Shown in pieces: positions 54,591 to 59,435 of a DNA stretch of 64,000 nt (positions within the stretch are counted from its first letter, which is position 1; each line of letters opens with the position of its first letter). Below the pieces are notes generated by a model. That model searched no databases. It was not told the DNA's origin and saw only the letters and a program-made list of their open reading frames with translations. A program made the translations under genes and the position numbers. Where the stretch lies: assembly GCA_028817405.1 (NCBI GenBank), contig JAPPPS010000090.1:22570-86569 (forward strand), given 5' to 3'. Source of the DNA: Gammaproteobacteria bacterium (GTDB taxonomy: Bacteria > Pseudomonadota > Gammaproteobacteria > Arenicellales > Poriferihabitantaceae).

Positions 54591-57500
54591 ATGACCATTC
54601 TCGATAACCACAGTCGGGTAAGCAGCGTTGGCGCACATTTGCGCGGGCTGCTCGGTGACGGTGCGCATACTTTGCGCATCGTCTCCGCCTACTTCACAAT
54701 ACATGCATATGAGGGGTTAATGCGCGAATTAGAAAATGTCGACACGGTGCGATTTTTGTACGGTGACCCCGGGTCTGTTGGGGAAGTCGACCCGGGCGAG
54801 AAGAAAAACAAAGGATTTGATTTAAGTGAACAAGGCTTATTGCCGCAACAATTGCTTCGACAAAAGCGTTTGGCAAAAGATTGCGAAAAATGGATAAAAG
54901 AACGAGTCAAAATTCGCACCATCAAGCAAGTAAATTTTTTGCACGGCAAAATGTATCACATCGAACGGTCCGCTTATCCGGATGCGGCGGTAATCGGGAG
55001 TTCAAACTTCACGCGCCGCGGACTGGGTTTTGACGACAGTGCAAATTTGGAACTCAACTTGTCCGTTGACGATGCTTCGACTTGTGATTCGTTGAAGCAG
55101 TGGTTTGATGCCATTTGGAGCAACAAGCATCTTAGTAGAGACGCCAAGGATGAGGTGCTGGCCGCGCTTCGTCGAATCGGCGAAAACCGCTCTCCGGAAC
55201 TTGTTTATTTCAAGACCTTGATGGAAATTTTTCGCGACCGAATAGAAGCGCGCGAACAAACAAGAGAGTGGCTTGGGGTGACGGACCTCAGAGATACACA
55301 GGTATGGCGAACGCTGTTTCCATTTCAGCGCGACGGTGTGATTGGAATCATCAATCGCTTGGAGCAACACAACGGATGCATTCTTGCCGATAGTGTCGGG
55401 CTTGGTAAAACCTACACGGCGTTGGCGGTCATTCGTTACTATGAAGCGAAAAATCAGCGGGTGTTGGTGCTCTGCCCAAAGAAACTCAGCGAAAACTGGA
55501 AACTCTACCCGACGCAATTCGGACAGCAAGGCAACCCTTTCAAGGAAGATAATTTCCATTATACCGTGTTGCATCACACCGACCTGTCACGACAATCAGG
55601 TCAATCAAACGGCATTGATTTGGCCGGATTTGATTGGAGCGGCTACGGTTTGGTGGTGATAGACGAATCTCACAACTTTCGCAACGAATCCAGCAGTACA
55701 CGCGACGAAAACGGTGTGATTATTCGCCACAGTCTTTATGAACGGTTGTTGCAGGATGTGATTCAACAGAGCGGCAAAACCAGCGTGTTGATGCTGTCAG
55801 CGACTCCAGTCAATACTTCGTTGGATGACCTGCGCAATCAAATCTATTTTATGACCGGGAAACGGGAAGATGCCTTCAAAGAAACCCTCGGCATAACGAG
55901 TGTTCGTTCCATGCTTGGTCGCGCGCAAAAACAGTTCAAGGAATGGGAGCGGCGAGGCGGGAACAAAGACAAACAAAAATTGTTCGATGCCCTGGGGGGC
56001 GACTTTTTTGCGCTGTTAGACGCCGTTTCCATCGCCAGGTCGCGCCGCCATGTAAAGATATTTTACCCGGAAGTCGTCAAGGAAATCGGCGGCTTTCCAA
56101 CGCAGACCAAACCCGAAAACGAATCCCCGCCAACGGATGCTCTGGGGAAACTCTCCTACGAAGAACTGAATCACGAGATTCAGAAATTTCGACTTTCGAT
56201 TTACACTCCGGCGAAATATGTCATCGGAGAACAGGCGCGACACGATCTGGAAGAGGAGAAAAAGAAATTCAACTTCAACCAAGTTGACCGTGAACGTTGG
56301 TTGATTGGCATGATCCGCGTAAATTTCCTCAAGCGCTTGGAAAGCGCCGCGCCGTCTTTGGAAAAAACATTAGGCCGGACCATTCAAAAAATTGAGGAGC
56401 AAGTGGATAAAATAGGGAGATATAAGTCGAAAATCGACGATGAAGGCGACGCCAACGCATCTTTGGAAGATGATTGGGATGACGAGGATTTTGTCGCCAG
56501 CAAGGCTCGACACACCTTTCACTTTAAAGATTTGGATCTGTCGAAGTGGGCGGATGATTTACGCAAAGATATGGATGTGCTGGAGGTGGTGCGCGTGAAA
56601 GTTGGCGCCATTACCCCGCAACGAGATAAAAAATTGGCCACGCTGAAACATAGAATTTTCGACAAACTGGCCAACCCGACCACTAACAAGGACGGACGCA
56701 AGAATCGCAAAATTCTGGTGTTCACTGCGTTTAAGGACACGGCCGTTTACTTGTACGATTATCTGATGCCCCTGATTCAGGATGCGTTTAATGTCGAGTG
56801 CGCGATGGTTGCCGGAGACGAGACAAAAACCACTTATGGCAACAACAATTTTAATGATATTTTGACCAACTTTGCCCCCATCGGACGCGGTCGATTTAAT
56901 CGTGATGAAGTTGGGCAGCCCATCCCAGATGAAAAGCCGGAGATAGATGTTCTTATCGCTACGGATTGCATCTCGGAGGGGCAGAATCTGCAAGACTGCG
57001 ACCGGGTGGTTAATTATGACATTCACTGGAATCCGGTTCGTTTGGTTCAACGTTTTGGCCGGATCGACCGCATCGGGAGTCGCAACTCAGCGGTGGGCAT
57101 GATTAATTTCTGGCCGACGAAGGAACTTAACTACTACCTGGACCTGAAAAACCGCGTAGAAGCACGGCTGGCTTTGATGGACGCTACCGCTACAGGAGAT
57201 GAACCCGCCGTTACCGAGAATGAGATGCGCGAGAGCGCCGAAACGGAGATGGGTTTTCGAGATGCACAAATTCGTCGATTGCATGAAAGTGCATTTGGTC
57301 TCGATGATCTGGACGACAGTGTAACCATGAGCGATTTTTCGTTGGACGATTTTATCGCGCAATTAATGAATTATTTGGAGAGAAACCGTGCAGAATTAGA
57401 ATGCGTTCCCTTGGGAGTATTCGCGGTTGCTGATTGCGCGAAAATGCAACCGAGCGTTCTTTCCAATATCGCTTCTCCGGGAGTGATTTTTTGTCTGCGA

Positions 57501-57920
57501 CAGAAAAATTCTCCACAAGGGAAAAGTGTACGCAATCCCTTGAAAGAATATTATTTGGTGTATGTTCGCGATGATGGCGAGGTGCGGTACAATTATACGC
57601 ATGCCAAACAAATTCTGGAAATTTTCGGAGAATTGGCGCAAAAACAGGATGCCCCGTTATTGCCATTGTGCGATATTTTCGATATCGAAACACAGAATGG
57701 GCGTGACATGGGCAAATATGATACCCTGTTAGACAGGGTCATCACCGCCATTAGTCGGAAATTTGACCGACAAGTTGCCGGCACTCTGGCTTACCGAAAT
57801 GCCGTTGTGCCGACAAAGGCCGAGCAACCTCAGACCGCGGAAAATTTTGAGCTCGTAACCTGGTTAGTCATCAAAGATGGCGAAAAATTGCCCGCGGACT
57901 CCGAACACAAATTATCCTGA
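54591..57920 (+). CDS. PLD-superfamily nuclease domain fused to an SNF2-family helicase (1109 aa)
   Basis: The N-terminal HKD-like motif is LHGKMYHIE...VIGSSNFTRRGLG. SNF2 motifs are ILADSVGLGKT (I), VVIDESHNFRN (II), LMLSATPVNTSLDDL (III) and VLIATDCISEGQNLQDCDRVVNYDIHWNPVRLVQRFGRIDRIGS (V-VI). G+C is low. The gene starts 4 nt after the yajC stop. Confidence 0.85.
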   Translation: MTILDNHSRVSSVGAHLRGLLGDGAHTLRIVSAYFTIHAYEGLMRELENVDTVRFLYGDPGSVGEVDPGEKKNKGFDLSEQGLLPQQLLRQKRLAKDCEKWIKERVKIRTIKQVNFLHGKMYHIERSAYPDAAVIGSSNFTRRGLGFDDSANLELNLSVDDASTCDSLKQWFDAIWSNKHLSRDAKDEVLAALRRIGENRSPELVYFKTLMEIFRDRIEAREQTREWLGVTDLRDTQVWRTLFPFQRDGVIGIINRLEQHNGCILADSVGLGKTYTALAVIRYYEAKNQRVLVLCPKKLSENWKLYPTQFGQQGNPFKEDNFHYTVLHHTDLSRQSGQSNGIDLAGFDWSGYGLVVIDESHNFRNESSSTRDENGVIIRHSLYERLLQDVIQQSGKTSVLMLSATPVNTSLDDLRNQIYFMTGKREDAFKETLGITSVRSMLGRAQKQFKEWERRGGNKDKQKLFDALGGDFFALLDAVSIARSRRHVKIFYPEVVKEIGGFPTQTKPENESPPTDALGKLSYEELNHEIQKFRLSIYTPAKYVIGEQARHDLEEEKKKFNFNQVDRERWLIGMIRVNFLKRLESAAPSLEKTLGRTIQKIEEQVDKIGRYKSKIDDEGDANASLEDDWDDEDFVASKARHTFHFKDLDLSKWADDLRKDMDVLEVVRVKVGAITPQRDKKLATLKHRIFDKLANPTTNKDGRKNRKILVFTAFKDTAVYLYDYLMPLIQDAFNVECAMVAGDETKTTYGNNNFNDILTNFAPIGRGRFNRDEVGQPIPDEKPEIDVLIATDCISEGQNLQDCDRVVNYDIHWNPVRLVQRFGRIDRIGSRNSAVGMINFWPTKELNYYLDLKNRVEARLALMDATATGDEPAVTENEMRESAETEMGFRDAQIRRLHESAFGLDDLDDSVTMSDFSLDDFIAQLMNYLERNRAELECVPLGVFAVADCAKMQPSVLSNIASPGVIFCLRQKNSPQGKSVRNPLKEYYLVYVRDDGEVRYNYTHAKQILEIFGELAQKQDAPLLPLCDIFDIETQNGRDMGKYDTLLDRVITAISRKFDRQVAGTLAYRNAVVPTKAEQPQTAENFELVTWLVIKDGEKLPADSEHKLS

Positions 57921-57932
57921 TGGTATAGCGCA

Positions 57933-59435
57933 ATGAACGATAATGGCATCTGGGTGGCGCTGAAAGATTTTGAGTGCACGCCCTTGCGTGATGGGGCAAC
58001 CAAGTTGCTGAGCAAGTTTGGGTTGACCAGCGACCGCGTGATGGGGGCGGATAGCGGGTCATTGGATGATTTTCTGAACGAGTTTAATGTCAATCAAAAA
58101 TTGACCGACTTGGAGCGCAAAAATATTCGTCGACTTGTGCGAAAAATTGTCTTCCTTTTTCAAGTTACGCAAGACGAAATTTCCTTGTTACCGTCGAGCG
58201 GAGAGGATGGTGGCTTGCTCGCAAATTCCATCATTTTTATCGTTGCCGATGTAACTTGCTCACCTCATTTAACTCAAGATGAGTTACAGGGTATTATTAG
58301 GCCATTGCGCAAGGGATTTTCAGCCCCAGTGGTCGGTTTGTTCCGATATGGCGGGCGGGTGGCATTCACGGCGGTGGCGCATAGGCAGCATCAAATTCGA
58401 CCGGAAATAGATGTGCTTTTCGGCGCTGGCGTGACCGAAAACGTAAACCTCTCCAACCCAGACTGGCGACACAAGGATTTTTTGCTGAAATGGCAAAGAA
58501 TCATAGCGTCCGGCTCTGCGGCAACCTTCGGTGATGTGGCGCAACATCTCATTAATGTTCCAAACAAATATCGCGCAGACAAACTGTGTCAAAATAGCGA
58601 TTCTCCCGATATTTTCCGTATGTATATCTGGGATGTTAGTCGCTGGCCGCTTCTTACCAAAGCGGATGAAAAAGAATTGGCCCGGCGAATGGATCATGAT
58701 GCGGATGCAAAAGAACGGTTCTACTGTTCAAATTTAAGACTGGTCATCTGGCAAGCCAAAAGATATGCCGATGTTTCTAACATCGATATCCTGGATTTGA
58801 TTCAGGAAGGCAATATCGGCTTGATGAAAGCAGTCAACAAGTTTGAGTATTGGCGCGGCAATAAATTCTCGACCTACGCGACCTGGTGGATCCGCCAAGC
58901 GATTACGCGGTATATTGCCGACCATGGCAGACTCATTCGGGTTCCCGTCCATGCATTCGAAGATATTCGACGCTTGGATCGCGTATGCTATACAATTTTT
59001 AGAAGAACGGGGCGGGATGCAACGCCTGATGAAATATCGGAAAAGTTGCAATGGTCCAAGGAAAAAGTGACCAGAGTTCTGAATATTGTCGAAGATCCGG
59101 TTTCCATGGAAGCGTCGACCGGGGACGACGTGGATATTAGTCGCTTGAAAGGTTCTATCGAAGACGAGAATATTGTTTCGCTGGTCGATGTCGTCACCAG
59201 TTCATGTCTCAAACAAGCAATTCGGACGCTTCTGAACTCGCTCACCAAGCGCGAGGCCGAGGTGTTGCGGATGCGTTTCGGCATCGGCATGAGTACCGGC
59301 CACACTCTGGAAGAAATTGGCAATCGCTTCGGTGTCACACGCGAACGCATACGCCAAATTGAGTCCAAGACTCTCAAGAAACTGCGTCGGTCGAGCCGCT
59401 CCAGACCCCTGCGCGTTTTTCTCGAAACCCCTTGA
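57933..59435 (+). CDS. Sigma-70-family (RpoD/RpoS-like, regions 1.2-4) factor with a novel ~220-aa N-terminal domain
   Basis: Region 2 reads [53 protein letters not shown]. Region 4 reads [49 protein letters not shown]. Region 1.2 starts near aa 225 ([17 protein letters not shown]). I did not recognise aa 1-220. Confidence 0.85.

Follow-up and report, generated by a model that had tools for sequence, protein, structure and literature searches.

Why should a nuclease-motor protein be encoded directly beside a protein that resembles the housekeeping sigma factor of its host? The question is raised by two adjacent genes in a 64-kb stretch of gammaproteobacterial DNA (assembly GCA_028817405.1, contig JAPPPS010000090.1, positions 22,570 to 86,569 of the forward strand; hereafter the window), which follow the host gene yajC and which a preliminary description had proposed as a possible RNA polymerase (RNAP)-linked conflict module. 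Gene 1 encodes an HKD (PLD) nuclease fused to an SNF2 ATPase/translocase, and gene 2 encodes a DUF4391-like module fused to a primary-type sigma factor. Comparison with relatives showed that the block was acquired horizontally and derives from a widespread restriction-like system. The invariant core of that system is an HKD-SNF2 protein with a DUF4391 partner encoded just downstream; in most relatives a methyltransferase (MTase) is encoded near this partner or is fused to it. It is very probable that the two genes form a functional and conserved pair of restriction descent with the DUF4391 module in common, and the pairing of HKD-SNF2 with DUF4391-sigma is a rare but conserved arrangement that has apparently not been described.

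The nuclease-motor gene, the sigma fusion and their shared inheritance

The list of open reading frames (ORFs), the scan of guanine-plus-cytosine (GC) content and the sequence itself agreed with the preliminary description on the position, size, spacing and low GC content of both genes. Gene 1 (54591..57920, + strand, 1109 aa; assigned by Pfam and PADLOC) starts with an ATG at 54591, leaving a 4-nt gap after the yajC stop codon at 54584-54586 (yajC, 54245..54586, + strand; Pfam YajC, E 7e-32), and its TGA ends at 57920, leaving a 12-nt gap before the ATG of gene 2 at 57933 (57933..59435, + strand, 500 aa). The pair occupies a low-GC islet of 4.9 kb (54587..59468, ~47-51 % GC, ~48 % overall) between yajC, which carries the attached block, and a histone-deacetylase-family gene of host composition; GC is 0.46-0.51 over 54.5-59.5 kb versus 0.60-0.72 on either side, and the downstream deacetylase gene is back at 0.64-0.70. 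Pfam identified the genes around the pair as a glycosyltransferase, yajC, the deacetylase and histidinol dehydrogenase. Because the ATG of gene 1 lies only 4 nt past the yajC stop, the block is probably transcribed by readthrough from the yajC operon. Scans of the islet for promoters and terminators gave nothing above shuffled expectation, and no Rfam family or other structured RNA was found in it.

Domain analysis of gene 1 revealed PLDc_2 at aa 87-176 (Pfam, E 1e-12), SNF2-rel_dom/ResIII at aa 242-407 and Helicase_C at aa 703-829, in agreement with the HKD nuclease and complete SNF2 motor that had been read from it earlier. The nuclease domain (54849..55118, +; matches to PLDc_2 and RE_NgoFVII) carries H118-x-K120 and G136-S-S-N139, and the motor (aa 242-829; 55314..57077, +) carries motifs I (GLGKT, 270-274), II (DESH, 358-361), III (SATP, 403-406) and VI (QRFGRxDRIG, 820-829). 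All these residues and motifs are unchanged throughout an alignment of 14 family members with identities of 45-87 %, indicating that gene 1 encodes a competent nuclease-translocase, the presumed effector of the pair. A conserved C-terminal region without annotation (aa ~870-1100; 57198..57890, +) contains many invariant columns; its AlphaFold2 (AF2) model is of low confidence (pLDDT 47), and it is a candidate site for docking of the DUF4391 partner. Among solved structures, only generic SNF2 proteins come close to gene 1 (CHD1L and RapA, E ~1e-8 to ~1e-7). The family has more than 8000 homologues, including an identical protein in an NCBI Gammaproteobacteria metagenome-assembled genome (MAG). 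In PADLOC, gene 1 matches 'C3a139 HKD+Snf2' (5e-110), which is no more than a cluster label taken from a survey of the neighbourhoods of type III CRISPR loci (PMC6546367).

The preliminary description had asked whether the two genes co-occur across genomes, and the pairing proved to be conserved. Neighbourhoods were sampled at graded SNF2 identity (L081-L089) and from distant sigma fusions (L090-L094). The sigma fusion lies downstream in 7 of the 8 sampled SNF2 relatives, that is, in 6/6 at >=64 % identity and 1/2 at 54-55 %. The order yajC, SNF2, sigma fusion is kept in L081-L083 (86-87 % SNF2 identity), and in L084 (75 %) it is followed by AAA_16, autotransporter and secD genes. L085 (74 %), at another genomic site, has SNF2, the sigma fusion and a transposase; L086 (70 %) has SNF2, an insertion sequence (IS), the sigma fusion, AAA_16, DUF4391 and an Eco57I-type MTase; and in L087 (64 %) the pair stands alone. 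At greater distance, SNF2 is followed by an Eco57I-type MTase in L088 (55 %), where the sigma fusion is absent, and by the sigma fusion, an Eco57I-type MTase and SIR2 in L089 (54 %).

The converse search, starting from distant sigma fusions whose N-domains are 26-43 % identical to that of the window, found an HKD-SNF2 gene preceding 3/3 fusion proteins whose upstream flank could be evaluated (on four contigs, L090-L093); the fourth distant fusion, L094, was left out of this count because its contig ends before the upstream gene. In L090 and L092/L093 the SNF2 gene overlaps by 4 nt the gene for a giant protein composed of the N-domain, sigma and a STAND-type ATPase, and in L091 the order is SNF2, HigB/HTH, sigma fusion and then a split DUF4391-MTase. 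L092 is taken as cyanobacterial from its CpeS and LdpA neighbours, and the sigma fusion followed HKD-SNF2 wherever it was sampled, in Gammaproteobacteria and cyanobacteria. Pairwise divergence of SNF2 and N-domain is correlated over ten loci (r = 0.89, Mantel p = 0.0004), and the SNF2 protein and the sigma fusion are inherited as a unit. A contig scan with the full sigma protein was silent on the pairing, since all 80 of its 80 loci matched the sigma part only (housekeeping rpoD).

In the giant fusions (L090:10001-14304, 1434 aa; L092:10001-17356, 2451 aa), DUF4391 and sigma-70 are followed by a long region of unknown nature and an ATPase of the AAA_22/STAND type, and P0208 is a DUF4391-sigma-TPR protein, so that STAND/AAA_22 ATPase or TPR repeats have been added in three sigma-fusion clusters. 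A separate AAA_16/wHTH ATPase gene follows the sigma gene in L084 (13023-14237) and L086 (14427-15665), the two copies being orthologous at 78 % identity; orthology of this gene to the ATPase of the giant fusions was unsupported (E 0.01).

The insertion site is shared in part by the closest relatives. A yajC/gene 1 junction of 0-4 nt is also present in L081, L083 and L084; L081 has both islet junctions in common with the window, and L084 has in common the upstream synteny only (acyl-CoA dehydrogenase, AMP-ligase, HAD, yajC). It had been expected earlier that secDF would normally follow yajC, and L084 bears this out: its inserted genes are followed by AAA_16, an autotransporter and then secD, which together with the common upstream synteny fits an ancestral insertion between yajC and secD. 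On the other flank of yajC, just 5′ of it, the window carries a glycosyltransferase gene (GT4/GT1 family, GC ~55 %, ~52900-54100, + strand) that is missing from the syntenic L084, indicating a separate insertion. The start-codon contexts of yajC (54233-54248) and the deacetylase gene (59526-59541) have a 16-nt stretch in common (CCGGGATTCATCATGG and CCGGAGTTCATCATGG, 14/16 identical), a likeness that may be due to chance.

The DUF4391 module and its methyltransferase partners

To what does the N-terminal domain of gene 2 (aa 1-~222; 57933..58598, +) belong? Residues 1-225 have no Pfam match, the window copy falling below the threshold of PF14335, and a k-mer search returned 1 relative only, so that exhaustive HMMER was required; against 1.84 billion representatives it retrieved 165 relatives. 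Among the best 150 of these 165, 94 are fused at the N-terminus of Eco57I-type N6-adenine MTases of 1000-1400 aa, 45 are short proteins, 10 are sigma-70 fusions and 1 is fused to an N6_N4 methylase. The MTases next to SNF2 in L088 and L089 match the window N-domain themselves (tblastn, E 7e-6 and 7e-14). Pfam DUF4391 (PF14335) is carried by several N-domain relatives and by the profile-search matches, and hhalign, aligning the profile of the sigma-type N-domains with that of canonical DUF4391 proteins, gave a probability of 88 % and E 3e-6. These alignments place the N-domain of gene 2 in the DUF4391 family as a divergent module, homologous to the MTase N-termini and to free-standing DUF4391 proteins. 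The earlier view of an unknown domain replacing region 1.1 thus holds for the loss of region 1.1, which is indeed absent, but the domain itself now has a family and is a partner module.

The AF2 model of the N-domain is confident (pLDDT 91.8) and has an alpha/beta fold; Foldseek found no significant match to it in the PDB (best E 0.02, TM <=0.22). Hints of an Hjc/SPARDA nuclease fold were too faint to be usable, and a catalytic PD-(D/E)xK reading was ruled out as no acidic or Lys residue is invariant, for which reason the N-domain is probably non-catalytic. Literature searches on DUF4391 found no functional description, the single mention of 'DUF4391' being a typo for DUF7941. At the sensitivity used, no N-domain relatives were found in IMG/VR, among INPHARED phages or in PLSDB plasmids, although more distant HKD-SNF2 + DUF4391 loci do occur on IMG/VR contigs. 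No tRNA, integrase, or phage or conjugation genes were found near the islet, and its flanks have no repeats beyond chance level. Together with the absence of the N-domain from the viral, phage and plasmid collections, this led us to reject a prophage or integrative and conjugative element as the carrier of the block, the possibility that the preliminary description had named as fatal to its proposal.

A census of 160 further HKD-SNF2 loci (L095-L254, 35-48 % identity), in which six-frame ORFs were scanned with purpose-built hidden Markov models and loci with a downstream flank of >=1.5 kb counted as evaluable, revealed a DUF4391-family partner in 72/72 metagenomic and 75/75 IMG/VR loci, mostly <=600 nt downstream of HKD-SNF2; together with 13/13 look-up loci this makes 160/160 evaluable loci. 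In the census the partner is fused to a Type IIG-like MTase in 44 loci and is free-standing or cut in 103; in L160 the gene for a full-length PF14335 protein (E 6e-67) precedes those for KilA-N and an N6_N4 methylase. A sigma-fused partner was found in 0 of the 160 distant loci of the census. With a partner in every evaluable locus and no sigma fusion among these distant ones, DUF4391 appears to be the obligate partner of the HKD-SNF2 nuclease-motor family, and the sigma fusion a rare, clade-restricted derivative. The partner MTases are classed as Type IIG by PADLOC and give weak DrmMI matches, and PLD+SNF coding sequences beside Cj0031-like Type IIG genes have been mentioned in passing (PMC9881135).

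The window departs from this pattern in its MTase. Homologues of the system MTase and of AAA_16 are absent from the 64-kb window, where tblastn with the L088 and L089 MTases detected the shared N-domain only, and the sole MTase of the window (6152-7705, N6_N4 + HNH) lies 47 kb from the pair. Fuller versions with an MTase are present in L086, L089 and L091, with a DUF4391-MTase beside the sigma fusion in L089 and L091, and MTase-less pairs recur independently in L085, L087 and L092 (within the sequence covered); L090 is uninformative on this point, its contig breaking off at the fusion gene's stop codon. Among relatives sharing the MTase-less state, the ratio of nonsynonymous to synonymous substitution (dN/dS) is 0.10-0.16 for gene 1; within gene 2 it is 0.08-0.43 in the N-domain and 0.12-0.32 in the sigma part. 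Purifying selection acts on both genes even where the MTase is lacking.

The origin in a conflict system that had been suspected for the pair is well supported by the DNA MTases that are the family's normal partners, among them Type IIG enzymes, and by the HigBA, IS and ThsB/SIR2 genes within or beside the related loci. Embedded genes include a HigB/HTH_3 toxin-antitoxin pair (L091:3534-4169), an IS transposase (L086:11710-12675) and KilA-N (L160:13264-14028); genes embedded among components in this way recall the 'embedded genes' of other multi-gene defence systems.

The sigma part of gene 2 and its likeness to known systems

The sigma part of gene 2 (aa 226-500; 58608..59432, +; assigned by Pfam and RpoD alignment) contains Pfam Sigma70 regions 1.2 (226-253), 2 (266-333), 3 (343-417) and 4 (433-485), and aligns to the RpoD of a solved holoenzyme (PDB 7xya, E 2e-79). 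Its regions 1.2-4 are 55-58 % identical to RpoD, including an identical 29-letter and an identical 10-letter motif, and region 1.1 and the non-conserved region are absent. In the window copy the residues for core binding, melting and recognition of the -10, extended -10 and -35 elements are all canonical, in line with the highly canonical regions that the preliminary description had read. The -35 recognition residues R584, E585, R588 and Q589 (E. coli numbering) do not vary in any of 14 fusions, and the residues of region 2.2 that bind core hardly do. W433 is changed to Q/Y in 3/14 and T440 to D/K/L/M/A in 5/14, so that together about half of the fusions are altered, and region 3.0-3.2 evolves fast (12-48 % identity even among close relatives).

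The sigma part resembles the primary sigma factor of the host's phylum. The window sigma scores 271 bits to proteobacterial RpoD versus ~195 to the SigA entries 8h3v, 8gzg and 9dvs, which we take to be cyanobacterial, and the host-matching comparison for the cyanobacterial fusion P0207 gave 383-393 versus ~265. Between L084 and L085 the synonymous divergence (dS) is 0.33 for SNF2 and 0.25 for the N-domain, the N-domains being 79 % identical, and it jumps to 2.7 for the sigma part; the L085 sigma is identical to genuine RpoD over regions 2.3-2.4 (100 %) and 91 % identical over 3.0-3.1, and region 4 of the L087 sigma is 90 % identical to RpoD. The jump in dS and the RpoD-identical patches indicate that sigma patches were replaced from the primary sigma gene. 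Judging from these alignments, the sigma part is evidently a mosaic with patches taken from that gene (mosaic signal in L084:11399-12874, L085:11351-12892 and L087:11406-13058), which suggests repeated gene conversion between the two.

Gene 2 nevertheless differs from RpoD/SigA. It possesses regions 1.2-4 with the residues for core binding and promoter recognition, but DUF4391 stands where RpoD has region 1.1 and the non-conserved region, and its gene lies on a low-GC islet. Against the NCBIfam RpoD models it scores 365.6 bits with NF004208 (cut-off 555, match from aa 257) and 314 bits with NF006666 (cut-off 572, match from aa 225).

To our knowledge, the only validated defence system in which an RpoD-like sigma factor is fused to an extra N-terminal domain is Mza. 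Its component MzaA is a sigma-70-family protein with a long N-terminal extension (mzaABCDE; PMC9523054; PMC13223576). The sigma part of gene 2 matches the MzaA models (PADLOC 5e-59; NCBIfam 317.8 bits versus a cut-off of 800), but over profile positions 475-716 of 726 only; the N-domain is a different one, and Mza has MutL/Z1-type partners rather than HKD-SNF2. Counterparts of MzaB-E are not adjacent, the neighbours belonging to other Pfam families and the other window proteins tested having no PADLOC Mza match. With the sigma part alone matched and no MzaB-E adjacent, membership in Mza was rejected. The literature found, with incomplete coverage, describes no sigma partner of HKD-SNF2 or DUF4391, neither in work on sigma decoys nor in that on Hma 'guilt-by-embedding'; the earlier opinion that a sigma partner is undescribed therefore stands, with MzaA as a precedent for a sigma factor carrying an extra domain.

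Closest to the pair are uncharacterised loci with HKD-SNF2, DUF4391 and an N6-adenine MTase, which have the same SNF2 family (35-87 % identity) and the same position of the DUF4391 partner. Compared with these Type IIG/Cj0031-like restriction-modification (R-M) loci, the window has an intact HKD-SNF2 protein and a DUF4391 partner and lacks the associated N6-adenine MTase, the MTase and target recognition domain (TRD) being replaced by sigma-70 regions 1.2-4. Class 1 DISARM (DrmA, DrmB, DrmC-PLD, DrmD-SNF2, DrmMI) likewise brings a PLD nuclease together with an SNF2 helicase and an MTase of the Eco57I type. In the window PLD and SNF2 are fused, however, and DISARM has neither a sigma factor nor a DUF4391 module. 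Gene 1 scores 133.9 bits with NCBIfam DISARM_DrmD (cut-off 610), no DrmA, DrmB (DUF1998) or DrmMI was found among the neighbours in the window or in the L081-L089 loci, and membership in class 1 DISARM was rejected on the DrmD score and the lack of an adjacent DrmA or DrmB. Of the two settings that had been named earlier as usual for PLD-SNF2 proteins, beside MTases or DISARM-like, the first is the normal one in this family. The PADLOC matches of gene 1 to DrmD, BrxH, HmaA and ZorD are partial only. Hma (helicase-methylase-ATPase, PADLOC) resembles L086 in its helicase, methylase and ATPase logic and in tolerating embedded genes, but lacks an HKD domain, DUF4391 and sigma, and HmaA matches only the C-lobe of gene 1 (82 bits). 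The AAA_16 protein of the relatives has no PADLOC match, and a sigma factor is not mentioned for Hma in 10.1101/2024.01.29.577857.

The analogy to RapA that had been drawn for gene 1 goes no further than generic SNF2 similarity. RapA is likewise an SNF2-family ATPase, but has no HKD nuclease and binds RNAP directly, not via a sigma-like partner. The match of gene 1 to it (49.7 bits, cut-off 576) covers only aa 771-832 in the generic helicase C-lobe, and membership was rejected at a score so far below the cut-off. No known defence model in PADLOC or NCBIfam claims the pair: apart from the cluster-label match of gene 1 the PADLOC matches are partial, and every NCBIfam score lies far below its cut-off.

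Possible functions of the pair and other features of the window

What would a nuclease-motor gain from a copy of the host sigma factor? We favour, at a probability of roughly 0.4, a restriction-derived defence module in which a sigma-70 mimic has replaced the methylase as the input subunit. The DUF4391 module would dock the sigma protein on the nuclease-motor as it would dock an MTase, and contact between the two proteins probably does run through DUF4391. The sigma part may bind host core RNAP, and perhaps -35 DNA, as does the housekeeping sigma of which it is a copy; this link to RNAP is suggested by the conserved sigma residues. In established holoenzyme structures, region 1.1 is positioned near the downstream DNA channel. 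As the N-domain is attached where region 1.1 would be, the motor could be placed near that channel. Since the window has no methylation mark of self, the nuclease would need another licence, and it would be kept off until an infection cue arrives. The cue input could be the sigma module, as a bait or guard resembling host sigma-70, a host protein commonly targeted by phages. Take-over factors of the phage (anti-sigma factors, sigma appropriators, RNAP modification) would perturb the sigma module, the perturbed module would license ATP-driven translocation and DNA cleavage by gene 1, and the outcome would be DNA degradation or abortive infection.

The bait or sensor step is the tentative part of this scheme. 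It is favoured because some fusions have STAND or TPR extensions, because the sigma part is host-matched, and because the surfaces for core and anti-sigma factors are kept while the initiation residues are relaxed. Plant NLR-ID proteins and bacterial STAND/Avs sensors offer a conceptual parallel, some sigma fusions carrying a STAND ATPase or TPR and the sigma part copying a host protein, although here the effector is a separate nuclease-motor protein. A more specific version appears doubtful to us: an integrated decoy, sitting on core RNAP or free in the cell and kept host-like by recurrent rpoD gene conversion, would bait anti-sigma factors and appropriators and trigger HKD-SNF2 via DUF4391.

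Several points weigh against the defence module with a sigma input. PADLOC 2.0 and NCBIfam hold no system of this type, and defence activity is suggested by ancestry; RNAP binding by the sigma part and anti-phage action of the pair are likewise read from conserved residues and kinship, and the docking role of DUF4391 is deduced solely from domain sharing and adjacency, DUF4391 having no known function or solved structural relative. Host matching and mosaicism could reflect neutral gene conversion rather than selection for mimicry. The window sigma keeps every residue for normal initiation, which makes a plain transcription role possible. The alignments do not bear out orthology between the ATPase built into the giant fusions and the free-standing AAA_16 protein, and the sample of the sigma clade is small (12 sigma-carrying contigs with 10 different SNF2 proteins, a number of which come from related sponge or marine MAGs).

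The main rival to the sensor or bait is a targeting role, in which the sigma part would replace the MTase/TRD as the DNA reader, bind promoter elements either by itself, being free of region 1.1, or within the holoenzyme, and load the nuclease-motor at strong sigma-70 promoters, for example those of phage early genes, where the motor might reel in and cut DNA in a Type I/III-like manner. The domain swap makes DUF4391-MTase and DUF4391-sigma equivalent, the -35 residues are invariant in 14/14 fusions and the -10 residues of the window copy are canonical, and the autoinhibitory region 1.1 is absent, N-terminally truncated sigma-70 being able to bind promoter DNA by itself. In L089 and L091 the DUF4391-MTase beside the fusion could protect self DNA. 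However, the window, L085, L087 and L092 have no system MTase, which would leave their own sigma-70 promoters exposed, yet the genes are under purifying selection, and about half of the fusions have degenerate residues for melting and -10 recognition; we consider such targeting unlikely. That gene 2 is instead an alternative sigma factor for genes of the defence operon or island, by analogy with R-M C-proteins, the extracytoplasmic function (ECF) sigma DdvS and presumably MzaA, we regard as distinctly improbable. DUF4391 would in that case be a regulatory handle, by which the SNF2 protein, for example, might sequester the sigma factor as an anti-sigma. The window sigma does have all regions and residues for initiation, and sigma-controlled defence loci are known (MzaA of mzaABCDE; DdvS/DdvA, PMC11506125). 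But its promoter-recognition residues are of the housekeeping type, giving it no specificity of its own and competition with RpoD, and with gene 1 lying 0-4 nt past yajC in four loci there is no room for an own promoter, nor is there a promoter signal beyond chance; these residues and the lack of promoter room make a plain regulatory sigma less likely. The W433/T440 changes and the fast-evolving sigma finger argue against selection for productive initiation, and the N-domain is the system's structural partner module rather than a known anti-sigma-binding domain.

A housekeeping accessory, recycling RNAP as RapA does or coupling DNA processing to transcription without any conflict role, is very improbable. 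SNF2 proteins such as RapA do bind RNAP, gene 1 has weak NCBIfam and PDB matches to RapA, and the block is probably co-transcribed with yajC; against this stand the score of 49.7 versus 576 confined to the generic C-lobe, the low GC, patchy distribution, varied genomic sites and IS and toxin-antitoxin neighbours, and an HKD nuclease domain with intact motifs in a family whose normal partners are DNA MTases. Scarcely credible is a decaying remnant, a non-functional pair left over from a three-gene restriction system after loss of the MTase. The window does lack the system MTase and AAA_16, and L086, L089 and L091 hold fuller versions, but both ORFs are intact, the catalytic motifs are invariant, dN/dS is 0.08-0.43 among MTase-less relatives, and the MTase-less state recurs in L085, L087 and L092.

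Whatever the input, the system gives DUF4391, on which no literature was found, a concrete role as the obligate partner module of a very large family, able to carry interchangeable heads (none, MTase or sigma-70). The modular swap, from a methylation-reading subunit to a copy of the host primary sigma factor, implies discrimination of self from non-self without DNA modification. Should the sigma part act as a bait or as an adaptor to RNAP, detection of phage transcription take-over would become testable with a two-gene cassette that offers clear mutational targets. MzaA, the sigma-like component of Mza that still lacks an explanation, may work on the same principle. If the decoy version is true, the pair would be the first bacterial immune system guarding a transcription-initiation factor itself, its restriction specificity subunit having been swapped for a sensor of phage take-over.

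Elsewhere in the window, the low-GC (~52 %) ORF at 6152-7705 (+), which encodes the N6_N4 MTase with a C-terminal HNH nuclease, looks like a separate R-M-like islet. A low-GC (53-59 %) four-gene cluster at 15851-21917 (+) encodes an ABC/SMC-like ATPase, a HerA-like (DUF87) ATPase, a 413-aa protein without matches and an AAA_16 ATPase; its first two genes have weak matches to MADS mad3 and mad8, and it may be another defence islet. The 643-aa ORF at 37049-38980 (-), whose sole domain is SmpB in the last 145 residues, is probably an over-extended call in high-GC DNA and not a real fusion. Two adjacent ORFs of 224 and 406 aa (62091-63989, -; GC 52-54 %) have no Pfam, NCBIfam or PADLOC match; the second, which lies almost at the end of the window, contains a proline-rich linker.

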